Source: Octopus vulgaris
Lineage: Eukaryota
Length of the DNA stretch: 64,000 nt
Direction of reading: 5' to 3'
NCBI GenBank assembly: GCA_951406725.2
Contig: OX597815.1
Coordinates: 188,418,001 to 188,482,000, forward strand
The notes below the pieces were generated by a model. It worked only from the letters and a program-made list of their open reading frames with translations. It did not search any database and was not told the origin of the DNA. Position 1 is the stretch's first letter. Every line of letters starts with the position of its first letter. Shown in pieces: positions 737 through 42,986 of this stretch. The translations under genes were made by a program, and so were the position numbers.

Positions 737-774
<38 letters not shown>

Positions 775-856
775 TAGATAAACATGCACACATAAACACA
801 CACACATACACACACATATACATATATATATATTCATATACATACATATACACACA

Positions 857-901
<45 letters not shown>

Positions 902-1223
902 AATTATTCATATTAGTTCCTTCATTTTTGCTGATGATGTCCAAGGACACCATAGACTTTATATGTTTTCTTAGAACACCATGAATTACATAACCCTACA
1001 CATGCAGCGACTTTTGTGCCTTTGCACTGTTGACCAACCTCTGTTTGTCCATAGTTCTGTTTTGAATTACCATATTCCTCTGAAGGTCTGGTATTCCAGT
1101 CCTGTTATGCAATCATGTAACATACCAGTATTAGTTAGTGAAACTTGCATAAGATTAAGTGATTTGTGACATTGCAATAAAAGTTTTTAAACCAACTCTC
1201 CTGTTTTATTCTGCTCTCAGATA

Positions 1224-1861
1224 TAAAAAACAAAATAAATGTTCCTTCTTGAGCCATGCCAGGCTCATAAGGGTCAGTTTCCCGGTTTCAGTGTCAGTCC
1301 AGGAATCGAAACCACAACCTCACAACCTTACAATCATGAGTTCAACACCCTAACCACTAAGCCATGCACCTCCACTAAATGTTCCTTCTCGAGCCATGCC
1401 AGGTTTGTAACGGCTGGTTTCTCAGTTTCAGTGGCGTAGAAGTCCCCCACCTGGATGGGATGCCGATCTATCGCCAGCTGAGTGCACTGGAGCAACATGA
1501 AATGAATTATTTTGCTTAAGAACACAACGCATTGCCCGGTCCAGGAATTGAAACCACAACCTTATGATCATGAGTTCAACACCTTAACCACTAAGCCACG
1601 TATCTCCACTATATGTTCCTTCTCAAGCCATGCCAGGTTCGTAAGGGCTGGTTTCCTGGTTTCAGTGGCATAGAACTTCCCCACCTGAACGGGACACTGG
1701 TCTGTCACAGGATTGCTCAATTTTGCCAGCTGAATGGACTGGAGCAACGTGAAATGAAGTGTCTTGCTCAAGAACACAATGCATCGCCCGGTCCAAGAAT
1801 CGAAACCACAACCTTATGATCATGAGTTCAACACCCTAACCACCAAGCTACGCGCCTCCAC
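1224..1861 (-). mobile_element. Head-to-tail trimer of a tRNA-headed SINE, bounded by one TSD
   Basis: Three related units (~1614-1861, 1379-1610, internally deleted 1239-1376) with A/B-box-like head and GGCATGGCTYRAGAAGGAAC tail; GCTCTCAGATA at 1213-1223 and 1862-1872. Confidence 0.75.
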
Positions 1862-1954
1862 GCTCTCAGATACAGACTTTGTAAATTATTCAAATGTATA
1901 TAATACCAAGCAAAACTCAGAGGACAAAAAACCTAATACTTGATTGAAATAAGG

Positions 1955-2385
1955 AGTGAGATGGCATAATTGCTTGCGTGCCAGGTAAAATGCTTAACAG
2001 CATTTCGTCTGTCTTTATGTTGTGAGTTCAAAATCTGCTGAGGTCAGCTCTGTGCATTTCATCTTTTTTGAGGTTGATAAATTTACCAGTTAAGTACTGG
2101 GATTATTGTAATCAACTTAGCCCCCACCCTAGAAATTGCTGACCTTGAAATGAATATTTAATTGAAATAAAGTGGTAGGTTGGCAGAGTCCTTAACAGTC
2201 TGGGAAAAATACTTAGAGCCATTTTGCCCTTCGCTATGTTCTGGGTTCAAATCCAGCCAAGGTCGACCTTGTCTCCCATCACTTCAGGGTCGATAAAATA
2301 AGCACCAGCTGAGCACTGGCAGTGAAGTGATCAACTTATCTCCTCCCTTGAAATTGCTGGCTTCGTGCTAAAATTTAAAACCAAT
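1955..2385 (+). mobile_element. Two diverged copies of SINE family B (Meta-domain-like)
   Basis: GTTCAAAT box B followed by GGTCGAC..TTTCATCCTTTCGGGGTCGATAAA..AGTACCAG-like central motif. Confidence 0.65.
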
Positions 2386-3120
2386 ATTTTATTGAAATTT
2401 GAAAATACGAGGAATTTCATGGAGAACTAAACATTAGTTAACTGTTGTGCTAGCTCAATCAAAATAAGGCTACTTTTTTATGTGTGTATATAAGCGTGTA
2501 TGTATATGTGTGTGTGTGTGTGACTTCAAGCTTCTACACCATTTCCAACTTAAAGCAACAATAGGCCCAGGGCTATAGTAGAAAACACTTTTCCTAAAAG
2601 GCCACCTTTTGGGACTGAACAGAAAGCCTTATAGTTATTAAATGAACATCGTAAATACTCAACCATGCCTTAAAAATACCTTTTGGTGTTGAAGTCATTT
2701 AATTATTTCATATAAAATAACAATCATTAAGGGTATGCATGTCTGTGGAGTACACAGCCACTTTCATGCGGACCAGTGTTAGCATGTTTACATTCCTGAA
2801 ACTTAGCAGTTCAGCAAAAGAGACTGATAGAATGAATAATTGGCTGAAAATAGAATAAGTCCTGAGATCAATTCGCTCAACTAAGAAAAAAATACTTCAA
2901 GGTGGTGCCCCAGCATGGGCTGCAGTCTAATGACTAAAACAAGTAGCATGTATTAAGAAATCTGAAAAGGAAAAAAGTGATGGAACTGACATGGAAGATT
3001 TTGCTGCAAAACATCCGGCGAGGAAATTTATTATACTAGATTAAGCTTTGGAGTGAGACATATATATTTATACAATTCAAATTCCTTGATTTGTCATGAA
3101 TTCTAATACATAGTTATGAT

Positions 3121-3594
3121 ACATGTACCGGCGGCACGTAAAAAGCACCATCTGAATGTGGCTGATGCCAGTGCCACCTTGACTGGCTTCTCTGCCGTTG
3201 GTACATGACCTGCTGTGCTTGAGGAGACCTATTGAGTCAAGTACATCAACATCAAAATAAATATCAAATGGTAATTATAATTGTGATACCAGTGCCGGTG
3301 GCATGTAAAAAGCACCATCTGAACGTGGCTGATGCCAGCACTGCCTTGACTGGCTTCTGTGCTGGTGGCACGTAAAGAGCACCAACCGATCGTGGCTGCT
3401 GCCAGCCTCTCCTGACACTTGTGCCGGTGGCACATAAAAAGCACCCACTACACTCATGGAGTGGTTGGCGTTAGGAAGGGCATCAAGCTGTAGAAACACT
3501 ACCAGATCAGACTGGAGCCTGGTACAGCCTCCTGGCTTCCCAGAACCCTGTCGACCCGCCCAACCCGTGCTAGCATGGAAAACGGACGTTAAAC

Positions 3595-27980: not shown

Positions 27981-28014
<34 letters not shown>

Positions 28015-28479
28015 GATAAGAAAGTTGGTTTGTGAAAGCACGTGGGTGAATATATAGAAAATAGTAAAGAGTGAAAAAACGACAGAAGGCTTAAATGTTA
28101 AAAAATATATATATTTGCGTCAATATGTCTGAAGAATATTAGAAAATTAAAAAAAAAAATTTTTTTCTCTTATAATGACGTAATTTAAAAGAAAGACTGG
28201 TTTCGCGTGTAGCTTTTCAAATTTCTTGTGATGTTATGTTTATGTTGAATAGAGTTATCATTGTGTTTATGTTCCGGAGAGTTCTAAATAAGGGGAGGTA
28301 GTGGGTGATTTCTTCTGGTGTAAGGGAGATAATCGCTTAAAAATTTTTTCCTTTCCCTTGATGTGAATTTCTCTGTATCAGTATGTTCGGATGGTTGAGT
28401 TTGGGCTTGTACTTTTCAATGAAGAAAATTTCCTTGTTTAGTCTAATTTGTGTTGATGATCCGAAAGCACATTGGTAAA

Positions 28480-28863
28480 ATGGAGGGACAGAAATTTAAG
28501 ATCCAATCTAACTTTACTTGTGCCTCTGAAAACATAATTTATGTCATAAAATGCTCGGGCTGCCACCAAGACTACGTGGGCTCCACGGGACTATCACTCA
28601 GACGTAGATGCACACTGCATCGACAACAGATTGCATTCCCAGAATATAGAATGATACCTTTTAGTGAGCACATTGAGAAATGCGCAAAGCAACTACTACC
28701 ACAATTTTTAATCTTTCTATTTTACCAATGTGCTTTCGGATCATCAACACAAATTAGACTAAACAAGGAAACATTCTTCATTGAAAAGTACAAGCCCAGA
28801 CTCAACCATCCGAACATACTGATACAGAGAAATTCACATAAAGGGAAAGGAAAAAATTTTTAA
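28480..28863 (+). CDS. C-terminal GIY-YIG endonuclease domain of a Penelope-like retroelement (fragment)
   Basis: FTCASENIIYVIKCSGCHQDYVGSTGLSLRRRCTLH..FSEHIEKC..RLNKETFFIEKYKPRLN: GIY/YIG variants (IIY, YVG), conserved R, E and LN, and a CxxC..H..H pattern. The first 10 codons of the track ORF come from the inverted arm. Confidence 0.9.
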   Translation: MEGQKFKIQSNFTCASENIIYVIKCSGCHQDYVGSTGLSLRRRCTLHRQQIAFPEYRMIPFSEHIEKCAKQLLPQFLIFLFYQCAFGSSTQIRLNKETFFIEKYKPRLNHPNILIQRNSHKGKGKNF

Positions 28864-28972
28864 GCGATTATCTTCCTTACACCGGAAGAAATCACCCACT
28901 ACCTCCCCTTATTTAGAACTCTCCGGAACATAAACACAATGATAACTCTATTCAACATAAACATAACGTCAC

Positions 28973-29011
28973 AAGAAATTTGAAAAGCTACATGTGAAAC
29001 CGGTCTTTCTT
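28973..29011 (+). ncRNA. Minimal type-I hammerhead ribozyme, U3-A8 variant (mirror copy at 28189-28227, minus strand)
   Basis: AAGAAA t TTGAAAA GC tacat GT GAAA C cg G TC TTTCTT; the mirror copy has a GC/GC stem II. Confidence 0.7.
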
Positions 29012-29583
29012 TTAAATTATGTCATTATAAGAGAAAAAATTAAAAAAAAAAAATTTTCTAATATTCTTCAGACATGTTGACGCAAATATATATATTTTTT
29101 AACATTTAAGCCTTCTGTCGTTTTTTCACTCTTTACTATTTTCTATATATATATATATATATATATACGACGGGCTCCTTTCAGATTCCGTCTAGCAAAA
29201 CCACTCACAAGGCTTTGGTCGGCCCGAAGCTATAGTAGAAGACACTTGCCCAAGGTGCCACGCAGTGGGACTGGACCCGGAATCATGTGGTTGGGAAGTG
29301 AGCTACTTACCACACAACTGCGCCTGCACCTATATTTGATAGAGATAAATGATAAAGATAGGGTGCTCTCTCTCTCTCTCCCCTCTCTTTATCTGGGATA
29401 TTAAGGAATAAATCATAAGAGCTGTCAAGCGTCTATATAAGAGGAATAAATGTTGGTATTGTTTTGCCACAGGTCAACTCTAATTGAACAGACCAATACT
29501 CAAACGTATTCCAACTATGACTTTTTTGGGTTGTCGGCAATTACATCATCCAGTAATGCCTTTTATTATTTTAGATGCAATCA

Positions 29584-29780
29584 AGGCAGCGAGCGGGCAG
29601 AATCATTAGCACGCCAGGTGAACTGCTTACCCGTATTTTGTCTGCTGCTACATTCTGAGTTCAAATTCTGCCAAGGTCGACTTTGCCTTTCATCCTTTTG
29701 GGCTCGATAAATTAAGTACCAATTGAGTACTGGGAGTAATGTAATCAACTATCCCCCTCCCCCAAATTTTAAGCCCTAGG
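29584..29780 (+). mobile_element. SINE family B
   Basis: Head and central motif. Confidence 0.8.
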
Positions 29781-30000
29781 ATTATTTTAGGTGTGATTTA
29801 AGGGATATTTGGTAGCTGTTTCTAGCAAGTCAAGCAACCATACAGATGCTCTCGCATTTGCTTATGTATATGAAGTAAATAAATGAAGTCCTTTGTCAGT
29901 GATGAAGTCATTGTATAAGTGGGTTCTCTCTAATGAATGCATTTCAGCTCTTTTTAATGCAATAAATACCTGTATATCTAAATTTTGGGTTTTAAAAGAT

Positions 30001-30350
30001 CATGGTTCCAGGTTCAGTCCCACTTCTACTATAGCCTCAGGCCAACCAAAGCCTTGTGAGTGGGTTTGGTAGACGGAAACTGAAAGAAGCCCATCATATA
30101 TATGTATATATGTATGTGTGTGCATATGTTTGTGTGTCTGTGTTTTCCCCCCCCAACATCGCTTGACAACCGATGCTGGAGTGTTTATGTCCCCGTAAAC
30201 TAGTGGCTCGGCAAAAGAGATCGATAGAATAAGTACTAGGCTTACAAAGAATAAGTGCTGGGGTTGATTTACTCGACTAAAGGTGGTGCTCCAGCATGGC
30301 CGCGGTCAAATGACTGAAACAAGAAAAAGAGTAAAAGAGTAAAGCGAGTA
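30001..30350 (+). mobile_element. SINE family A, 5'-truncated and internally deleted
   Basis: Family A body and tail. Confidence 0.8.
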
Positions 30351-30781
30351 TAGACTTAACCAGAAGAGGAAGGGAAGATCCCATAACTTTGTTCAGGGCC
30401 TCTGAAGTGTGTAAACACTTCAGTTATCCTTAGTATAGAGACATGACAAATTGGACTCAACTATAAATGCATTATTTAGTATACCAAATGAAACGAAAAA
30501 ATATCAAAGTCTGAATCTTGGAGGAGATAGTGGCTAAAAGTGAAAGATAAAATATCCCAAACTGATAGCATCATGTTTTCGGTAATTGTTTTGAATAACA
30601 CAATGTTTCAATCTATATTGTAGATAACATATATTTCATGCAATGGGCTTATACTGTGTAGGAAGTAGGTCAGTACAACAATGCAGGATGTATGCTGCAA
30701 CAGTCTAATACTGAACAAATGGATACAAAACTGACGACTTGAACAACCTTCTTGCCAAAACAAAAACAACAAAAAGCAAGT

Positions 30782-31495
30782 TTAACCATTTCATTATCAA
30801 CCGGACTGAAACTGCCTTTGGTTCTGTAGTACAAATGTCTTGTTTTCATAGGTTTTTGATTAAAATCTTCTATAAAACCTTTGTCACAATTTATGTTCCT
30901 AAAGCCAGCTTAATGATAACTAAGTTATTTTACTAAATTCTTTGTTATATTTAAAATTAATAGAAAGAAACACAGAGCATCTCAACAGAAATATGGCAAC
31001 AAAAGGGTCAACAAATGATTAATTTAACCCTTTTGATACCTACCCACCTAAAACTGCCACTGGCTCTGTAGTAAAAATGTCTTGTTTTCAAAAGTTTTGA
31101 ATTAAAATCTTCCACCAAAACCTTAGCCACAGTTTATGTTCCTAACACAAGCTGAATGATAACGAAGTTATTTTACTAAATTCTTTGTTATATTTAAAGT
31201 AATTGAAAGAAACACAGAACATCTCAACAGAAATATGGTAACAAAAGGGTTAACAAATGATTAGTTTAACCCTTTTGTTACCAACCCAGCTGAAACCGCC
31301 TCTGGTTCTGTAGTACAAATGTCTTGTTTTCATATGTTTTGAATTAAAATCTTCCACCAATCCTTAGTCATAATTTATGTTCCTAACACCAACTGAATAA
31401 TTACTAAGTTGTTTTACTAAATTCTTTGCTATATTTAAAGTAACTGAAAGAAACACGGAGCATCTCAAAATAAATTACAGTAATGAAAGGGTTAA
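30782..31495. mobile_element. Tandem triplication of a ~230-bp TTAA MITE
   Basis: Units 30782-31011, 31024-31253, 31266-31495, each TTAACCCTTTTG..ACAAAAGGGTTAA-like; 242-bp period. Confidence 0.85.
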
Positions 31496-32337
31496 AGTCG
31501 GTTTCTGTTTCTTATTGAAATGGGTCTTAGCAAGCTAGATGTTCACTTCATCAGGGTGTGTCTTGGGAAAAACCTGTGTCCTTATTTGTCTCTTGCATAT
31601 TAGTATGCTTGTCTCATCTGATGAAGAGTTTTAAATTCAAAACATCCACAACTTTTGTCATTTGAGTATACAAGAATTAAACTTTATTTCCAGTAACAAG
31701 GCTCCCATGACAAACCACTTAACCCCCGCCCTTTATGAACCGATTCTACTCACTAATTACTAACACAAACCATCACCAGTTTACAATTTACAGTTTACTT
31801 GGATCCTGCTGTTTACTTCCTACGCTGTTTATTTTCTGTACATTATCAGGTGTAAATTCCCATACATTTATTACCTGCATGATTCCAATTAATTTATCCA
31901 ATGTACCATGGACTTATTGTACAAATATATATTAACTTAAGTGATAGTTAAATTTATTCTTAATGACATCCATACGAAACTGAACTTGATGTTAGATTTA
32001 ATGATAGCATTTCCAGTTAGTATCATAAATTCTCATTCTTTTCTATATTTTCCTTTTACTAAAACAGAAACTCTTATCGATAAGGGCTTATGATTTCTAT
32101 CCTCACACTATTTATGTCTTCCATTCCTGACCCTGTGGCTCCACCGCTTATAAAAATATTTTGATTTCCAATTTTCAATGATTCTAATTTGTAGGATTAG
32201 GGGGCTGCACTTGCATAGCAAGTGGCCTGATCTGAGATCGTGTGCTGGAACGAAAACAATTGCAGCATGGAAGGTGTTTATAAGCCATTTAAGAAACACT
32301 CAAAATCCATTAGATTCACTCCAACATTTAAATTTAA

Positions 32338-32388
32338 TTTGTCAAAATATTTTCATCGCTTTGAAACTGTGACCTGTTCGCTGACAAA
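32338..32388 (-). ncRNA. Minimal type-I hammerhead ribozyme, G3-C8 variant, in a probable PLE stub (~32200-32408)
   Basis: Minus strand: TTTGTCA GCGAACA g GTCAC agtttcaaa GCGAT GAAA ATAT TT TGACAAA; perfect 7-bp stem I; palindromic stem III AATATT. Confidence 0.7.
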
Positions 32389-32659
32389 ATTCCATGCAGC
32401 ACGGAGTTCTCTTGATTTCCTTTTGTATTAGTTCTGGTTTTCTTTTGTAAGTCCTGTTTTGCTTAAATAGAAATAGTTCTAAGCAGCTATGATTAAAATG
32501 AAGCAAAATTAAAAGAAATAATCTTGCTTGCTAGACATAAAGGGTGCAGTTAATTATTCACGGCTATTCAATGAGTGAAATTGAATGTTGTGAACTCCGA
32601 TACCAGAACTTTAGATAAACTAGATTTGAGTGGGTAATTACTTGAAATTGTTTAGTACA

Positions 32660-33030
32660 AAAGGCACCATTTGAGCGTGATCATTACCAGCGTCGCCTTA
32701 CTGGCACTCGAGCCCCGTGCTAGTAGGGTATCAAGAACATCATCCGAGCGTGATCGTTGCCAGAGCGGCTATCTGGCCTTCGTGCCGGTGGCACGTAAAT
32801 ACACCATTCGAGCATGATTGTTACCAGCATCGCCTTACTGGCACCTGTGCTGGTGGCATGTGGAGTGAAGTCGTTGCCAGTGCCAGTGGCACATAAAAGC
32901 ACCCACTACACTCTCGGAGTGGTTGGCGTTAGGAAGGGCATCTAGCTGTAGAAACTCTGCCAGATCAGATTGAAGCCTGGTGCAGCCATCTGGTTCGCCA
33001 GCCTTCAGTCATTCGTCCAACCCATGCTAG
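32660..33030 (+). mobile_element. SINE family C
   Basis: Family C modules and truncated tail. Confidence 0.8.
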
Positions 33031-33092
33031 ACTAAAGAGGCCCACCCGCAACTACAATACTATCATTTAATTTTCTTTTTTTTTTCTCCCCA

Positions 33093-33328
33093 GTTGTGTC
33101 TGGGGAGAGTCATTTTCTTTTTGTGCCTTATAATGTAACACACTCACTGGTAAAATTTTCACTTTTTTTCTTATTTTTATTTTCCTAAGAAATAAGTGGA
33201 AATTTTACCGGTGAGTGTGTTAAATAATAAGGCACAAAAAGAAAATGACTCTCCCCAGACACAACAGTATATGCTTCAACACACTAACTCATATAAAGAA
33301 TCTTGCAAACCAAATCCAAAAACGAAAA
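33093..33328. mobile_element. Fold-back repeat with one-sided tail (same family as 40965-41503 and 63958-64000)
   Basis: GTTGTGTCTGGGGAGAGTCATTTTC..CCAC arm followed at once by its reverse complement plus a ~65-nt extension. Confidence 0.8.
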
Positions 33329-33979
33329 GTAAAGATAATGGTTATAAGGTTTTAAAACAATGTGTGTGTGTGTGTGCATGCACAAGTGTGTGTACACACG
33401 CCCACACAAACAGATGCATGCATATATATATATATAATACATGGTATTGTTTTGTTGAAAGACAAAGACTGATTGTTTGGTAAGCAATTAGACTTTATTA
33501 ATTCATGGCTTTGTATGTTAACAAAAATTGTACATCTGAAAGTATAGAATGAAAAATTATGAAGTATTATGTAACGCTTTACAAAAGAGTTGGAATAAAA
33601 TACAAAGAATGACATTTTTCAAATACTTTTGATTGCCAAATTATTAGAAGGACAACAAAAAAATATAAATATTAACATCTCACATGTATTCATAAATTCA
33701 TAAATGCCTTTCACATTTATTCATTGTGTCTTGATGTGCTCTTTTGAAATCCGAGATTATTTAAATGACTTGAATATATATGAGAAAATCAGGAAAAAAA
33801 TAGATGTGGTACTAATAATAGTGTTTAGTACTTGAATCAATTCTTTGACTTAGAAACGACTGTATTTCTAAAGGTTTAGTGACTAAGAAGACAATGGAAA
33901 CCCTATTGGAAATGATGATAGCATCTGACATTATTTATTAAGCGATTCTTTGCGCTATTGGATAATAGACTCTTTCTCT

Positions 33980-34205
33980 TTTTCTTTTACTTGTTTCAGC
34001 CATTTGACTGTGGCCATGCTGGAGCACGACCTTTTTTAGTCGAACGAATCGACCCCAGGACTTATTCTTTGTAAGCCTAGTACTTATTCTATCAGTCTCT
34101 TTTGCCAAACCCCTAAGTTATGGGGACGTAAACACACCAGCATCGGTTGTCAAGCGATGTTGGGGGGACAAACACAGACACACAGACATACAGACATATA
34201 TACAT

Positions 34206-34273
<68 letters not shown>

Positions 34274-34503
34274 AATTAGAGACAAAACCACTATTATGCA
34301 AATCAAACAAAGAAAGACATATATATATATACATATATACGACGGGCTTCTTTCAGTTTCCGTCTACCAAATCCACTCACAAAGCTTTAGTCGGCCCGAG
34401 GCTATAGTAGAAGACACTTGCGCAAGGTGCCACGCAGTGGGACTGAACCCGGCACGATGTGGTTGGTGAGCAAGCTACTTACCACACAGCCACTCCTACG
34501 CCT
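33980..34503 (-). mobile_element. SINE family A with a ~50-bp foreign insert in its (TA)n tract
   Basis: Insert 34270-34320 matches 24835-24880. Confidence 0.85.
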
Positions 34504-35097
34504 AGACTTAGAGTATCTATTATGAAACAGCTAAAATATTTTCCATCTATTAACTCTGTATAATTGACATCATATTTGAAGTGTTTATACGTTACTTTCT
34601 AACAAAAGAATTAAGCAATTTTACAACATCATACAATTTGTAGTTTTCAGAATAGTTTTATTGTTGGTGAGATTAATAATATTGTGGAAATGTAAATTGT
34701 GATTTGGATATAATTTGTCTTCACTTTTGCAGAGTTGAGTGGATTAATCTAAATTTTATTTATGATTAAATTTGGCAGAGATATTTTCATTCTTCCTCTT
34801 GTTGAAGTATAAACTGCCATAAGTTGTCAAGATCAATTCTGTTAAAGGTATAAATTTTCTGATATAACCATCAGATAATATATTATTATTTTCTTTTTCG
34901 TTGTCTAATTTTACATCATAAGTCACTTCTGGTTTAGTAGGAATATGATAAATTGATATTTAATCTTAATTCCAGCTAAGAAAACACAGACAAGATTAAA
35001 ACTACTATTGTATTTAAAAGTAGACATTTACTGACAAAAAAATAAAAAAATATAAAAAATAAAAATATTTCGTGTGTGTGTATGTAAGTATATATGC

Positions 35098-35128
<31 letters not shown>

Positions 35129-35162
35129 CATACATATATATATATATATATACATGTATATA

Positions 35163-35226
<64 letters not shown>

Positions 35227-35856
35227 GAATATTTAAATTTAGATACACACACATTATTATATAGATCTTGATTCAGTTAATATTTGCATTTCACTTTATA
35301 TATTTATCTAAAACTAAAATAAATGAAATGAGCTAACAACCCGTGTTCAAGTGACAGACAAAAAGACTATTTTAGGAAAGAAATAAGTAATTTTATCTAT
35401 CCTGATAAAGAATAAGGTGAATATATGTTAGGAAGAACACATACATATACATAAACACACACACACACACACACTCCATATGTATACTCACACCATGCAC
35501 ACTTCTCCATATGTATACACATACTCACCCCTTCTCTCTGTTTTTTCATGCATGCGTACATACATTTATATTCTCCTATATGAAGAATGGCTTCATTTAT
35601 GAACCCTAGATAAATACAATAATAGGTTAAATATGTGTTTTAACATTCGTGGATGTTATAAATATGGTGCAAGGGATGAGGTGAGATGAAGATCTATGCA
35701 TTTCTGGCTCCAATAAACATGACAGTCACCTAGTCATGTACCAATCAGGCAAACCAGACACACTTCATATTCATCAGAACACAGAATTGGCAACAAGTTG
35801 TAGGTATTGAATTTTCTCTGGGAATTCACTTGTGACTTTTGAAGTTAGGATAAGGA

Positions 35857-36600
35857 TAAGACAAACTTGGAGACAAGATAGACTTGGAGACAAGACAGAC
35901 TGGGAGACAAGACAAGCTGGGAGACAAAACAAACTGGGAGACAAAACAAACTGGGAGACAAGACAAACTGGGAGACAAAACAGACTGGGAGACAAGACAG
36001 ACAGGGAGACAAGACAAACTGGGAGACAAGACAAACTGGGAGACAAGACAAACTGGGAGACAAGACAAACTGGGAGACAAGACAGACTGGGAGACAAGAC
36101 AGACTGGGAGACAAGACAAACTGGGAGACAAGACAAACTGGGAGACAAGACAGACTGGGAGACAAGACAAACTGGGAGACAAGACAGACTGGGAGACAAG
36201 ACAGACTGGGAGACAAGACAAACTGGGAGACAAGACAGACTGGGAGACAAGACAGACTGGGAGACAAGACAGACTGGGAGACAAGACAGACTGGGAGACA
36301 AAATAAACTGGGAGACAAAATAAACTGGGAGACAAAATAAACTGGGAGACAAAATAAACTGGGAGACAAGACAAACTGGGAGACAAAACAAACTGGGAGA
36401 CAAAATAAACTGGGAGACAATACAAACTGGGAGACAAAACAAACTGGGAGACAAAACAAACTGGGAGACAAAACAAACTGGGAGATAAGACAAACTGGGA
36501 GACAAGACAAACTCAAAGACAAGACAAGCTCAGAGACAAGACAAACTTAGAAACAAGGTAAACTTGGAGACAAGACAAACTCAAAGACAAGGCAAACTTG
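35857..36600. repeat. 17-bp minisatellite (CTGGGAGACAAGACARA)n, roughly 40 copies
   Basis: Read directly; the 17-aa periodicity of the ORFs equals 3 x 17 bp. Confidence 0.95.
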
Positions 36601-37070
36601 AGGTGTGGAAACTGAAATATTCCTCTAGATTCAAAGAAGTTCATGTTGGTATGTATAATGGGAAGGAGGAGAATTTTAAAAGATTTGTATCTGAGAGTAA
36701 AGTTTGAGTTTGACAAAAGGTGACATGGTAGTGGAATGGTTTGGTAGATAAAGGAGTAAAAACTAAGAAACAGGTCTGAAAAGAAAGGAAGAAATCAGGG
36801 AGTAAGGAACAATGTCAGTTTGGTAAAAGAGAAGCCAGTTTTCAGCTAGGAGAGAGGCTTGTCAATGTTCTTTAGTGAAAGGATTAGAGTTTCAAATAAT
36901 GTGCAGAGAACAAAGCAGGATCAGTAATTCTTTCTAATGCTTTTGGTGCCAAGGAATATGTGTGATAATGGTCTCCTAAATAACACTTGTCAGCACCTAG
37001 AACTCATCTTGGTGGACATGTTCAATGTTATTTGAAATATATTTTAGGACATTCATAAATAAATAAATAT

Positions 37071-37463
37071 GCTACCCTAAAGTCCAACCCCTCCTCAAAA
37101 CGGTAGGGTAGTGTAAACGGGCAGTGTCAGAGCTATGCTGTCGGGAACTTCGGTTCCTGGTAGGCCCACCCAAGGCGGATTGGTCTGGCACCAAGCGGTA
37201 TTAGGGCTGCAGACTGGCCAACAGGGCTCTGGTGAAAATTCCAAGAGGCATCTGATCAGTAACTGGCGGCTTCGAGATCATTCTGCCCCTGCGTCTGTGG
37301 AGACTCTGTGGCAAACAGGGTGTCCCGTCACTCGGGATATTCATGCAGGATGTCGGGGACTGCTTGTGAATTCAATATTCCCACAAAACTTCTGCTACGA
37401 GAGAAGAAGCCGGCTCAACCCGCCCTGGGTGAACGCCGTCACAAGTACAAGTAAAGTACATAC
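37071..37463 (+). mobile_element. GC-rich ~390-bp non-autonomous retroelement (RTE-derived-like)
   Basis: GC island in AT-rich DNA; (CAAGTA)n-like tail; ATAAATAT direct repeats at 37063-37070 and 37464-37471. Confidence 0.55.
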
Positions 37464-37723
37464 ATAAATATTGGTAAATTTAGGTAGAATAATGAGATAC
37501 ACATTTGTCTGCAAATGTTATGATAGAAATCAAACAAAATGATGTGTTGTTGGTAGAGTTTAGTTCTGGGTCAGTCCTGGCTGTGCAGCTTGAAACATAA
37601 AAGACACTTCAGATGTGACCCTTCTATTGCTTTGAATATCTAAGATAATATTGTCTGATGTATCCCACCTATGCCAACAGGGAAGTCAGACATTAAACGT
37701 TAATAATGATAATGATGTTTTTA

Positions 37724-37957
37724 AGGCAGCAAACTGGCAGAGTCATTAGTATGCCGGGCATGATGCTTAGCGGTATTTCGTCTGCTGTTACGTTCTGAGT
37801 TCAAATTCCGTTGAGGTTGACTTTGCCTTTCATTCTTTCGGGGTTGATTAAATAAGTACCAGTTACGCACTGGTGTCGATATAATCGACTTAATCCATTT
37901 GTCTGTCCTTGTTTGTCCTCTCTGTGTTTAGCCCCTTGTGGGTAGTAAAGAAATAGA
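37724..37957 (+). mobile_element. SINE family B
   Basis: Full head, motif and tail. Confidence 0.85.
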
Positions 37958-38923
37958 TAATGATCTTTGCATTTTATTAAGACATGGAGTAATTTGAGAG
38001 AGATGTGACTGCTATTTGAAGAAGGCTTGCCCAATTAGAACATCTGTCTTTGGTTCAAAGACTATGGGTCAGAAGAATCAGTCAACATCAGATAAAATGC
38101 CTTGTGGAATTTGGTACACTTCCTTATATTCTGTTTTCACAATCTGAGATGAATAAAATAAATAACATTATGCTTCTTTTTATAGTTGAGATGTTTTACT
38201 TAAGGTTGTGTTGAAGTGTTTCACACCATCGCTGATGAGTCATCTTTTGGTGGGTCATTTTAATTGCCAATGATTCCTGTTCATAGACAACAATTATGCT
38301 ACAGTTTTTCAAGTTTCCTTTCAGTAACTATTATAAGCTCTTCCTTTGTCTTTGTGTAATGCATTTTACTTTGAGTAAAGCATCTGTTTTGACAACCATT
38401 AGCCTGGAATTTACATGACTTGGCAAGTCACTGAAACTGATGTCACATAACCAAGGCTTCAATGCAGGAGATGTTGGCTTGCTTGAACATACTGCCATTC
38501 TTCCATGTGTTTTGCCACAGGATATACAAGTTTTCAGTTAGGCATTTCTGATATTGTATATTTCTATATTGTTGAGATGTTGCTTGTCTGGTTTTCTAAA
38601 CTATAGAGGACAGCAGATGTAACAACTCTTCACATCTACAAGCCTGGTGCGTTGTCTCTGACCTTGGTCTGTACATTCTCATCCTCCCATCCGACAAAAG
38701 GTGATGCTGACATTTTATATCCAGTGTTCGATTTCCTCACCAATATCAACATTCTGTTACAAGCGGCTTTGAAGAATTCTACATTTGTCCTGGTTCTTAC
38801 CATTTGACCGTATCTCATAATGCACAAACGGCAAGGTGTTCAACTCTGGAAGATCTTGTGCAAGAACAAAGACCATAACTGCATCAGAAGCTGAACTTCA
38901 GCATGGAGATGATTCCACAAGTG

Positions 38924-39374
38924 GAGGAGCATGACTTAGAGGTTAGGGTGTTTGGGTAAGATTTGTGGTTTCAAATCCTAGACTGGGCAACTCATTGTAT
39001 TCTTGAGCAAAACACTTCATTTCATGTTGGTCCAGTCTACTCAGCTGGCAAAAGTGAATAATGAAACTGCAACTACAATATCCCTATATATCTTATTTCT
39101 ACCTTCATTCTCTTATTTCCTTCTATATTCCCTATCTCCTCCTTTCCCACAATAATTCGAAGTCAAACATTTTCTCACACTGTCTCTGATGAAGGGATAT
39201 CAAAAATATCCCAGAAACAGCTCTAAGACTATTTCATTATAAATGTCCAGAAAACTCCTCACATAGACATGTGTCTATGGAATGCTCAGCCACTTTCACA
39301 TTAATTTCATGAGCAAGCTGTTCCATTGATCGGATCAAATGGAACCCTTGTCGTCGTAACTGATGGAATGCCAC
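38924..39374 (+). mobile_element. SINE family D interrupted by a ~200-bp hammerhead-bearing segment (~39060-39260)
   Basis: Head 38924-39055 and tail 39265-39374 match the 14219-14541 copy. Confidence 0.7.
39182..39229 (+). ncRNA. Minimal type-I hammerhead ribozyme with canonical CUGAUGA core
   Basis: GTCT CTGATGA a GGGATAT caaaa ATATCCC a GAAA C agct c TA AGAC; one mismatch in the palindromic stem III. Confidence 0.8.
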
Positions 39375-39375
39375 A

Positions 39376-39409
<34 letters not shown>

Positions 39410-39681
39410 ATCTGTATATATATATATGTATATATAAATGATATATATATATATATATATATATATGTGTATATCTGTATATATATATATGTATATATGA
39501 ATAATCATCATCATCATCATCATCATCGTTTAACGTCCGTTCTCCATGCTAGCATGGGTTGGATGGTTCGACCGGGGATCTGGGAAGCCAGAAGGCTGCA
39601 CCAGGCTCCAGTCTTATCTGGCAATGTTTCTACAGCTGGATGCCCTTCCTAACGCCAACCACTCCATATATATATATATAT

Positions 39682-40456
39682 TGATAAAACGGTAAGATAA
39701 CAAAAGAAAGAAAGAGACCTCAATATTATGTAAATAGAGGAAATTTATCTATACAATAATATGTTACATTACTCGGTAGTCAAGATAAAACTCTGAGTTT
39801 CAGATGCCGAAGTGGAAATCCACAACACCATCTCATCGGTTATCTGGCTATTTGAAAACACTAGGAAAAAATACCGTTAAATAAAGGGAAATTACTCTGT
39901 TATAACTCTGTTTGCCTGCGTACTTATACATCGCTCGCATTTTTCGTCATAAAAATTATATAAAAATACATAAAAAATATATAAAAATATATATAAAAAA
40001 TATATAAATTCTTCTTGGGACATAACATAGAAAGCATGTTCTATCTGTTTTCTTTAGGGGACCAAAAACGTAACAGAAATTTAGTCACATGTGGGCATGA
40101 TCCGAAAAGCTCTGTCCTTGTATTTAGACATGTAGTAGGGTCTAAGCTGCTTTTCCGTCCCCTAAAGAAAACAGATAGAACATGCTTTCTATGTTATGTC
40201 CCAAGAAGAATTTATATATTTTTTATATATATTTTTATATATTTTTTATGTATTTTTATATAATTTTTATGACGAAAAATGCGAGCGATGTATAAGTACG
40301 CAGGCAGACAGAGTTATAACAGAGTAATTTCCCTTTATTTAACGGTATTTTTTCCTAGCGTTTTCAAATAGCCAGATAACCGATGAGATGGTGTTGTGGA
40401 TTTCCACTTCAGCATCTGAAACTCAGAGTTTTATCTTGACTACCGAGTAATGTAAC

Positions 40457-40463
<7 letters not shown>
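39682..40463 (+). mobile_element. Non-coding PLE-like insertion: 307-bp inverted repeats, 94-bp spacer, ~74-nt tail, within (TA)n
   Basis: 39756-40062 is the near-exact reverse complement of 40157-40463; each arm carries a hammerhead motif. Confidence 0.85.
40374..40436 (+). ncRNA. Type-I hammerhead ribozyme, U4C variant (mirror copy at 39783-39845, minus strand)
   Basis: AGATAA CCGATGA GATG..GTGGA tt TCCAC..CATC t GAAA CTC a GAG TT TTATCT. Confidence 0.7.
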
Positions 40464-40497
<34 letters not shown>

Positions 40498-40508
40498 GTA
40501 TATATATG

Positions 40509-40553
<45 letters not shown>

Positions 40554-40580
40554 TAATTATGTATGCATATATATATTTAA

Positions 40581-40613
<33 letters not shown>

Positions 40614-40964
40614 TTTGTATACACTCACATACACACACATACACACATACATATGAAATATTCTGAACATTTTCATTCAAGATTATTGCAAGAAGCTAGT
40701 TATTGTTAACAGATGAGATGTTCCATCACACAATATGACTTTTTTAAAACTGATCAGATGTATGTTTTAAATTGATCAGATGTACCAAGTAATTGAATGA
40801 CTGTCAGTTAAAAACTAATTAAAAACACTAGAATTCTGATATCATGTCACAGCATCATTCAAATACAGAGGAAATTTCCACAGACAGGAGATTAAATAAT
40901 TAACCATAGTTTATGGTATTCAATTGAATTATTTCAGAGATTTTTATGATTAATGATTGTTAAA

Positions 40965-41503
40965 ATATTTCGTTTTTTGGATTTGGCTTGCAAGATTCTT
41001 TATATGAGTTCGTGTGTTGAAGCATATTTTGTTGTGTCTGGGCAGAGTCATTTTCTTTTTGTGCCTTATAATATAACACACTCACCGGTAAAATTTCCAC
41101 TTTTTTCTTATTTGTATTTTCTAAAATTTTCGTTTTAGAAAACACGGACATGCAAGCACATAAATATGCAGGATACGTACATACAGATGCACATACATAC
41201 ATATATACATATGCATACACACACATATATACATACATACACATGCAAACACACATATACATACATACGTACATGCATGCATGCATAGGCACACACACAC
41301 ACACACACACTGACTCACACACATGTGCACAAACAAACAAAAGGGAATGCAGTGCAAATTATGGACAGAGTCAAAACTATTGAAAAGGTTGCAAGACGCA
41401 ACGAAAATTTTAGGAAAATAAAAATAAGAAATAAGTGGAAATTTTACCGGTGAGTGTGTTACATTATAAGGCACAAAAAGAAAATGACTCTCCCCAGACA
41501 CAA
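40965..41503 (+). mobile_element. PLE-like insertion with inverted arms and asymmetric tail
   Basis: ~41032-41135 is the reverse complement of ~41400-41503; extra tail 40965-41031; hammerhead-like motif at 41377-41413. Confidence 0.7.
41377..41413 (+). ncRNA. Candidate minimal hammerhead, U3-A8 variant
   Basis: CTA TTGAAAA g GTTGC aagac GCAAC GAAA AT TT TAG; stems I and III are very short. Confidence 0.55.
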
Positions 41504-42548
41504 TAGATTGTTAAAATGTTATCAAATAAGGAATGCTTATAATAGAGAGTATTATCAGAAAAGGAATTACAGCATTAAAAGACAAAGGAGTGTAGGTATC
41601 TCTAGATTCTGAAAAATTCCATGCATGAAGAGAAAGTCCTTCAAGATGCAAATGTATCTTTTTAGTATTTTGCAATGCAATATAAATGAATGGTACTGTT
41701 TGTCACTGGAGGTCCCCCGAGATAAGATGTTGGTTGAAGATATTTCTAAATAATGTTGTCCTGGAAATTCAATATCGTCCAAGTATTTATTATCTGTACT
41801 AGAAATCTTGAGATTTAACTGATAACATGAGCATTATATAAGACTGTACGGAACAGGCAAATCAATGTCAAGACAAGTCTATACTTGACCTGTTTGGAAT
41901 CATTAAAAAGCTTAATGTGAAAACAAGTGGTTTTCATACAAGGTGTATGAAGAGATATCCTTTCTGGAAGTATGTAAAGAAATAGAAAGAGAAGCAGGGG
42001 AGGGGCGAGCAGAGAGGAGGGAGGGAAATAGAGACAGACAGTCATACTTTCTCTGTGTGTGTGTGTGAGAAAGAGTGTGTTGTAGTTTTCATCTAACTCA
42101 GAGACAATATAAATTTAATCTTATTAATTTTAAAAGGAATAATTTTTGCATTGTTTTCAAGTTCATGTTATTAACAGTCTGCACCATGGCTAAAAGCTTA
42201 ATGAAAAAACAACAAAAACAGATAACGAGAAGGACAACGAAAACTAACGATCTCTTGTATATGGTTGTTTGTTTTATTATTCCTACAGCCACCACCACTT
42301 CTTTATTTGTTTATTTATTTTGTATTGCAAATGGTGAACAATAGCTTCATTGCTTACTGGTTTCCAAAGAACCATTCATTGGTTCACTGCATTTCTTAAA
42401 GCAAAAATGACAAAGAAGTATCTTTAACTCATTGCAGAACAAACAATCACATGGGACCTCACTCATAATGTACGGCTTTATTGATTTTTTTTACTAATGT
42501 TTATATCCTTCACCTATATGCATCAATATACATCGATGAATGATACAC

Positions 42549-42593
<45 letters not shown>

Positions 42594-42755
42594 CCGGAGT
42601 AAACACATAAATGTGAAACAAGGTGGAAAAAAGGGTACTCAAATACCAGTGGTAGAGCAATATGCTTTATTTAAAGCATAAACTGTCCGATGAATGGCAA
42701 CAGGAAACTCAGAGTAACAGGTTTTGTTGAATTTTCTGCTGCTTTAAATAAAGTA
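42594..42755 (+). mobile_element. 160-bp PLE-like stub in (TA)n: tail, short inverted end and hammerhead
   Basis: ATGCTTTATTTAAAGCA (42662-42678) is inverted at ~42739-42755 as TGCTTTAAATAAAGTAT. Confidence 0.7.
42683..42720 (+). ncRNA. Minimal type-I hammerhead ribozyme, U4C variant
   Basis: CTGT CCGATGA a TG gcaa CA g GAAA CTC a GAG TA ACAG; GNRA loop II; same stem III as the 40374 motif. Confidence 0.7.
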
Positions 42756-42986
42756 TATATATATATGTATGTATATACACACATACACACATGCATGCAC
42801 ACATATGATGAGCTTTCACGCAGCTCCCATTTAATTATTTTGTCACAAAATATCAATGAACCCATGGCTATTTAGATGACACTTGCTAAGGAATCACACA
42901 GTGGGTTTTGAACCCAGAACCATGTTGTTAGAAAGAGAAATTCTTAACCGCACAACCATGACTGCATCAATAACTAAAATAAATAA

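Follow-up and report, generated by a model that had tools for sequence, protein, structure and literature searches.

Minimal hammerhead ribozymes are known from metazoan Penelope-like elements, where they lie in the pseudo-long terminal repeats (pLTRs); they cut weakly, and cleavage requires either a dimer or a lengthened stem III (Cervera and de la Pena 2014, PMC4209133). They have also been described in Hydra-clade elements (Craig et al. 2021, PMC8557442), whose authors note that hammerheads may simply parasitise these elements, and in the Poseidon element of an anole (Frangieh et al. 2024, PMC11167929), where the hammerhead needs protein, is killed by either C3G or G8C and partly rescued by both, and where uncut RNA is the main template. 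Core positions 3 and 8 pair in the active conformation (PMC3884650), and G8 acts via its 2'-OH (PMC8495972). Penelope hammerheads have shown weak cutting in vitro, and insertion did not require them in the one reconstituted system. We examined a window of 64,000 nucleotides from the Octopus vulgaris genome (contig OX597815.1, forward strand, positions 188,418,001 to 188,482,000), an AT-rich, repeat-dense stretch of a 2.8-Gb genome in 227 contigs. The hammerhead motifs in this window lie at the ends of six repeat families, of which five are linked to Penelope-like open reading frames (ORFs); judged from sequence, these motifs likely derive from weak, dimer-dependent ribozymes whose 3-8 pair selection preserved in the parent elements, and the window copies themselves are probably dead.

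A sequence-only reading of this window had proposed six type I hammerhead motifs. All six are present, each starting where that reading had put it, at its first stem I base (for the minus-strand motif, its lowest base). Two further copies in the same range, both inverted and absent from that reading, belong to families A and C. The features, with N3 denoting core position 3, are:

28008..28484, minus strand: family A inverted 5'-truncated piece, ORF end plus pLTR (blastn 93-94% to the full-length copy L189; tblastn)
28189..28227, minus strand: family A hammerhead, inverted, UUGAAAA, N3 at 28220, stem III broken (G16.2 to A)
28483..28839, plus strand: family A C-terminal GIY-YIG remnant (Pfam E 7e-4, weaker than the curated threshold; 98% to the L012 ORF)
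28973..29011, plus strand: family A hammerhead, UUGAAAA (U3-A8), N3 at 28980, predicted cut after C17 (29005)
32196..32401, minus strand: family B non-coding element, about 210 bp, with fixed ends
32338..32388, minus strand: family B hammerhead, GCGAACA in this copy, N3 at 32381, predicted cut after U17 (32345)
39056..39263, plus strand: family F pLTR remnant (longer copies have a Hydra-like ORF upstream)
39182..39229, plus strand: family F hammerhead, canonical CUGAUGA, N3 at 39186, 7-bp stem II, stem III broken (G16.2 to C)
39666..40156, minus strand: family C (Hydra clade), last 37 ORF codons (40154-40044) plus pLTR
39783..39845, minus strand: family C hammerhead, CCGAUGA, N3 at 39839
40151..40480, plus strand: family C inverted pLTR piece
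40374..40436, plus strand: family C hammerhead, CCGAUGA (C4), N3 at 40380, predicted cut after U17 (40430)
41032..41515, plus strand: family D remnant, with an inverted piece (41032-41134) and a CA-rich 3' region plus pLTR (41140-41515; blastn to L412)
41377..41413, plus strand: family D hammerhead, UUGAAAA (U3-A8), N3 at 41380, predicted cut after U17 (41410)
42595..42758, plus strand: family E (Hydra-like), short inverted piece and forward pLTR piece inside (TA)n
42683..42720, plus strand: family E hammerhead, CCGAUGA (C4 subfamily), N3 at 42687, predicted cut after A17 (42716)

All six families have stems I and II, G5, A6 and A9, GAAA, U16.1, H17 and a palindromic stem III, although the stems differ. 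The family A motif at 28973 has a 6-bp stem I, an extra U before N3, a decayed 2-bp stem II and the palindrome ACCGGU; that of family B has a 7-bp stem I, a bulged G, a 5-bp stem II (decayed in the window) and AAUAUU; and that of family D has a 3-bp stem I, a bulged G, a 5-bp stem II and AAUU. Families C (40374..40436) and E share the palindrome ACUCAGAGU, C with a 6-bp stem I, a long stem II and an extra base before G12, E with a 4-bp stem I and a 2-bp stem II closed by a GNRA loop.

With a descriptor free at position 8, we found five matches with a Watson-Crick 3-8 pair and no mismatched match in 28016-42755, compared to a mean of 0.15 and a maximum of 2 Watson-Crick matches in 40 block-wise dinucleotide shuffles, so that the motifs exceed their shuffled controls. 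A strict descriptor gave three matches in the same range (0.025 in shuffles), and the whole window with position 8 free gave six Watson-Crick matches (0.43 shuffled) and one mismatched match (0.78). The descriptor missed the family A motif because of the extra U before N3, and the family F motif because G16.2 is C in the window copy, which breaks stem III. The Rfam scan was uninformative for these motifs: there was no hammerhead family among the matches listed (150 of 152, E up to 10).

The variant cores are family states and not private mutations, as counts for families A to E show. Searches of the octopus genome with each DNA query returned 741-3,334 first-look candidates, of which 40 were scored and 30 fetched. 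Genome-wide counts of exact patterns, with positions 3, 4, 7 and 8 free, gave 677 matches for A, 1,215 for B, 3,256 for C, 1,557 for D and 6,586 for E (F was not counted in this way), and we read core states from the first 100 listed matches per family, all on contigs C1-C3. Among these, family A had U3-A8 in 92 and UUGAAGA in 8; family B had G3-C8 in 95, with exactly GUGAACA in 90 and C4 in 3; family C had C3-G8 in 98 and C4 in 99, with A (92) or U (6) at N7; family D had U3-A8 in 89, C3-A8 in 9 and other states in 2; and family E had C3-G8 in 99, with U4 in 60 and C4 in 40. The majority line of family F is CUGAUGA. Thus, for the GCGAACA core reported in the window copy of B, G3-C8 is the family state, but C4 is rare and not a family trait. 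The warning that a CUGANGA-only search would miss such motifs holds for A, B, C, D and part of E. Family F, A, D and 60 of the 100 listed E cores have either CUGANGA or the published UUGANAA, whereas B (GUGAACA), C (CCGAWGA), the 40 other listed E cores and a further family, H (below), have neither.

The pair between positions 3 and 8 recurs across families in all four Watson-Crick forms, which suggests that selection has kept a working fold. In an 800-kb sample from arbitrary genome places, scanned with a descriptor free at positions 3, 4 and 8 and compared to five shuffles, Watson-Crick matches with a pyrimidine at position 4 were in excess (15; 0-1 shuffled), compared to mismatched ones with a position-4 pyrimidine (1; 1-3 shuffled) and Watson-Crick (1; 0-1) or mismatched (5; 0-4) ones with a position-4 purine. 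Over 2.05 Mb, with positions 3, 4, 8 and 17 free, all 15 clusters of at least two copies had a Watson-Crick majority; 69 single descriptor matches were of mixed type. We set aside two clusters as chance, one inside the ORF of family D and one a local duplicate, and of the remaining 13, seven are C-G and four U-A, with a single cluster each for G-C and A-U. Moreover, G5, A6, A9, GAAA, U16.1 and a non-G N17 are the majority state in every convincing family. The claim that positions 3 and 8 are complementary in every case is therefore correct for family majorities (15 of 15 clusters), but not for all copies: there are an amplified set of U3-G8 copies in A (8 of 100 listed) and C3-A8 copies in D (9 of 100 listed). 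A permutation of family labels (1 in 51,480 for the 13 families) was not used as a P value, since it ignores shared ancestry. Most families are consistent with avoidance of a Watson-Crick trap between N3 and N17, but this idea was dropped because family X combines U3 with A17.

The A-U cluster is family H, which we traced from one descriptor match in the 800-kb sample (L409:2718-2754, on G000:C8 near 26957217; loci L310-L339). Its core, AUGAAUA, is fixed in all 32 aligned copies and in each of the 81 exact matches, and the ORF that precedes the motif shares 61-62% identity with that of family A. In a protein tree of 10 rows without reference elements, C, E and F form one group, D lies on a long branch, and I groups with A, X and H; H joins A and X at 91/98 support (drawn open). 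Since A, X and the outer family I all have U3-A8, A3-U8 would by parsimony have arisen from U3-A8 by two changes. Compared to A and X, both bases of the pair have changed in H, the stem III palindrome is still ACCGGU, and stems I and II have been rewritten yet still pair. Contigs of three organisms aligned to H have as their commoner form G-to-A and C-to-U changes at one stem I pair (G-C to A-U; the two changes are presumably linked), with loop II also changed, and list no core change at 5%. Further U3-A8 motifs (X, I, Y and singles, one of them with C4) were seen at L187:2710-, L199:1092-, L400:2396+, L009:2832-, L058:2646- and L289:9791+.

The two exceptions to strict complementarity differ from one another. 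The UUGAAGA copies of family A form a subfamily with several diagnostic changes common to all four fetched copies (L416-L419), and the ORF end of one of them is 94% identical to that of family A; thus a U3-G8 wobble master was copied. A single change separates U3-G8 from U-A, and likewise from C-G, and it is the expected intermediate. The four fetched C3-A8 copies of family D (L420-L423) have no diagnostic changes in common, and in one case the insertion also contains a U3 partner; all are cut off close upstream of the motif, with inverted pieces. A C3-A8 subfamily of D was supported neither by these copies nor by 16 full-context matches.

In families A, C, D, E and F the motif lies on the sense strand behind an ORF with reverse transcriptase (RT) and GIY-YIG endonuclease (EN), three of them Hydra-like and two of Neptune/Nematis type; the ORF-linked families have a single ORF with RT plus GIY-YIG at its C terminus, as in canonical EN+ Penelope-like elements. 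Copies with tandem pLTRs (L189, L181 and an array described below) and inverted 5'-truncated copies occur, the latter as inverted pairs in the window. The idea that several unrelated Penelope-like families are represented thus stands in that pLTR hammerheads are linked to ORFs in five families, but C, E and F form one group and B is a putative Penelope element. Full copies of family A match RVT_1 (E 5.8e-8), with GIY-YIG below the Pfam cut-off, and L189 carries the motif twice, 3,986 bases apart; in the window, the end of the GIY-YIG domain is directly upstream of the family A motif. The zinc-finger linker between RT and EN that marks Neptune and Nematis elements, CX2-5CxxC, has the form CX4CxxC in A, X, H and D. 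We take A, X, H and I to be Neptune-like and D to be Nematis-like, labels which lie outside the reference-free tree.

Family D has its own 662-residue RT/EN frame, with YVDD and a GIY-YIG-type end. Its endonuclease was found in L116 and in 150 further matches, and the motif is downstream of it in most of 30 loci picked by that endonuclease. A Neptune-like ORF beside D copies in L114 and L188 was ruled out as D's own, as the D motif is missing from 19 of its relatives. A palindromic remnant at window positions 33094-33267, made of two inverted family D 3' ends without the hammerhead core, accounts for spurious Rfam microRNA matches.

Family C belongs to the Hydra clade: its proteins have RWK, DKT, a CxCX5C linker and CxxC and CxH in EN, and its copies are less than 3 kb and lie in (TA)n targets. 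Its GIY-YIG is below the Pfam cut-off and Pfam gave no RT match; the RT region was recognized by motif and tblastn. Same-strand tandem copies form an array with a spacing of 2.58 kb. Families E and F have broken frames upstream of the motif, 44% and 36% identical to C, respectively; they are placed with C by the tree only, and Hydra motifs are partly visible. The two E subfamilies differ at N4 (U or C), N7, 11.1, loop II and the palindrome centre, and decay of C4 to U4 at CpG as the only cause was ruled out, as A11.1 is found in 59 of 60 U4 copies compared to 1 of 40 C4 copies. Several E copies share a start immediately upstream of stem I, and the AG in front of it could be a splice acceptor. 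A family G, with CCGACGA (C4) and the palindrome ACGU, was seen at L187:2240+ and in 21 other copies.

We infer a Penelope origin for family B, which is flanked by (TA)n and often has inverted 5' pieces; the six bases at one end complement the six at the other, and it is also abundant in sequence runs of two other organisms. In many B copies (L031-L060, L370-L399) the start varies by no more than a few bases around a position about 20 bases upstream of N3, a possible transcription start. Widely spaced B pairs (L400-L408) were considered as tandem parents and rejected, as they proved to be palindromic duplications, LINE insertions or TA-spaced runs. At L400-L404 (G000:C31), B copies stand in short head-to-tail, (TA)n-spaced runs within several duplicated blocks, and among the families only B has such local runs, on C31. 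L406 and L407 (G000:C1) are two related large palindromic duplications, each with inverted B pairs.

The copies in the window are remnants, and any selection acted on their parent elements. The proposal that the families here keep functional ribozymes was not borne out for these copies, which are truncated and partly decayed and for which no same-strand partner of the same family was found within the window. Stem II has decayed by CpG-type changes in the window copies of A, B and E relative to their own families, and the stem III palindrome is broken in the F copy and the inverted A copy; the C and D copies agree with their families. As the A and C pairs are inverted, a read-through transcript would give a long hairpin and not a ribozyme dimer. 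Nor do they have the layout of non-LTR retrozymes, in which short units that each bear a type I hammerhead are repeated head to tail; the window copies are solo or inverted. Two CUGAUGA heptamers 60 bases apart in the window (31554, minus strand, and 31618, plus strand), one of them followed by a small hairpin, have no complete hammerhead fold and no family among the loci examined. Separate tandem repeats lie at 30779-31495 (a 242-bp unit in three copies) and 35858-36598 (a 17-bp unit in about 44 copies).

Base 8 of the hammerhead acts through its ribose, which the 3-8 pair positions, and for this reason any 3-8 pair might be tolerated. We propose that a transcript of tandem elements would carry two or more motifs, that their palindromic stem III arms would pair between motifs to give two active junctions, and that these would cut after N17 and so release unit lengths from the long RNA, in a reaction that is probably slow and assisted by the element's protein. 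Swaps of the 3-8 pair would likely pass through a wobble state. If reverse transcription proceeds mostly from uncut RNA, dead copies would keep the whole motif.

Several points weigh against working ribozymes kept by selection. Independent 3-8 changes are few, although at least three; seven of the 13 clusters (A-F and H) were sought on purpose; the U3-G8 subfamily of A was amplified; and C3-A8 occurs in D. U4C lowers activity in vitro (PMC3088659), and in a deep mutational scan a G:C swap was the sole rescue of this motif (PMC9901934). When we folded dimers of 10 family-type copies (with 2-bp stems II left out of the fixed hammerhead structure and two A rows with a one-base offset ignored), the hammerhead was the predicted lowest-energy structure in four of them (A, E with U4, F and X) and failed to be so in the other six (B, C, D, E with C4, G and H); in E with C4, the core is predicted to pair with stem II. 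Copy ends likewise showed no pile-up at the predicted cut in B or C: in B, 25 5' ends (11 of them fold-backs) lay there compared to 74 and 10 at two control sites, and in C, 33 (7 of them T-run slips) compared to 11, less than 1% of the family, although the patterns differ in selectivity and a small excess is possible. These ends, the weak stems (a 2-bp stem II in A, H and E and an AU-only stem III in B and D), and the lizard element, in which hammerhead mutants had no effect on insertion in vitro and no reads ended at the cut site (PMC11167929), would suit a fold kept for a job other than cutting, such as a handle for the element's protein or, where pLTR and ORF meet, a signal for folding or translation, with variants that fold but cut little or not at all. 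We consider this unlikely, as the 3-8 pair belongs to the active conformation (PMC3884650) and a binding handle need not keep G5, A6, A9, GAAA, U16.1 and a non-G N17.

A slightly less probable alternative is that the ribozymes are dispensable passengers, whose cores drifted to fixation in a few masters through lucky events and shared ancestry. Hammerheads as possible parasites of their elements (PMC8557442), non-autonomous copies movable in trans, families that fall into only three groups and the amplified U3-G8 subfamily are consistent with drift. However, among the 15 clusters there is no amplified family in which mismatches are the majority, two changes are needed to reach G3-C8 and two to reach A3-U8, the sole amplified exception is still a wobble pair, and the four fetched C3-A8 copies of D share no diagnostic changes. 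Family B poses a separate problem, which also counts against our preferred explanation: no parent ORF was found beside its copies in L031-L060, L370-L408 or a random sample, nor in the flanks of 30 similarity-picked and 30 tail-picked copies or by a low-stringency search. With both ends fixed and complementary terminal six bases, B could be an unrelated short element (SINE-like, MITE-like or a retrozyme monomer) with a hammerhead-like motif; we regard this as improbable, if less so than the other alternatives, given that B shares frequent inverted 5' pieces and (TA)n targets with the other families and is similar to family D in its bulged G, G10.1-C11.1 and AU palindrome. That the motifs arose by chance in AT-rich repeat DNA, which the loose descriptor and the 69 mixed singles might suggest, we consider refuted by the shuffle controls, by family sizes in the hundreds to thousands and by a constant position within the element in five families. 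Thus, weak ribozymes with a 3-8 pair kept by selection on the parents remain our preferred explanation.

A tertiary pair of the active state was swapped several times with no mismatched family, which is comparative evidence that catalytic geometry matters to the element. The families are ready natural test constructs for G3-C8, A3-U8, U3-G8 and C4, and CUGANGA descriptors miss thousands of motifs per genome. More tentatively, and with somewhat less than even confidence, one genome may hold working hammerheads with every Watson-Crick 3-8 pair, the U-G wobble and C4, including the first family-wide natural G3-C8 and A3-U8, which would show the path of the swaps and selection in vivo to cut RNA, probably under core rules relaxed by protein.

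This is neither a new ribozyme class nor a new element class: minimal hammerheads in pLTRs, U3-A8, U17, bulges on the stem II side, viroid U4C, 2a insertions and engineered G3-C8 are already known. In the mostly open-access text searched, including the 56 rows of Fig. S3 in PMC4209133 and File S2 of PMC8557442, we found no Penelope family in which G3-C8, A3-U8 or C4 is the natural state throughout. Lunse et al. 2017 reportedly described small Penelope-associated hammerhead variants with a diminished stem III and dimer cleavage, and their alignments may contain some of these core variants already. The minimal hammerheads of PMC4209133 are like those here in their pLTR position, in mostly solo or inverted copies, and in a short stem I, a bulged base after A9, a palindromic stem III and frequent U17. 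U3-A8 was published there, with about 1,300 matches in Schistosoma mansoni, as was UUGAAGA in one hemichordate row; in contrast, the 56-row alignment (Fig. S3, as text) lacks G3-C8, A3-U8 and C4, which are family states in this one genome. Natural core variants with U3-A8, insertions before C3 (2a), a 2-bp stem II and viroid U4C were likewise described by Perreault et al. 2011 (PMC3088659), but mostly in microbial, phage and viroid motifs with tertiary contacts, and the accessible passages do not name G3-C8 or A3-U8. Family C has the motifs, 2.58-kb unit and (TA)n targets of the Hydra clade, with which E and F group through C, and the table of PMC8557442 also contains stem III ACUCNGAGU and a 10.1-11.1 mismatch and names an Octopus Hydra family; whereas every Hydra row of its File S2 has CUGANGA, C4 is found here in C (99 of 100) and E (40 of 100 listed). 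The PAc hammerhead of the anole element is likewise a Penelope pLTR hammerhead, and the G3-C8 pair that was engineered there (PMC11167929) is the natural state of family B.

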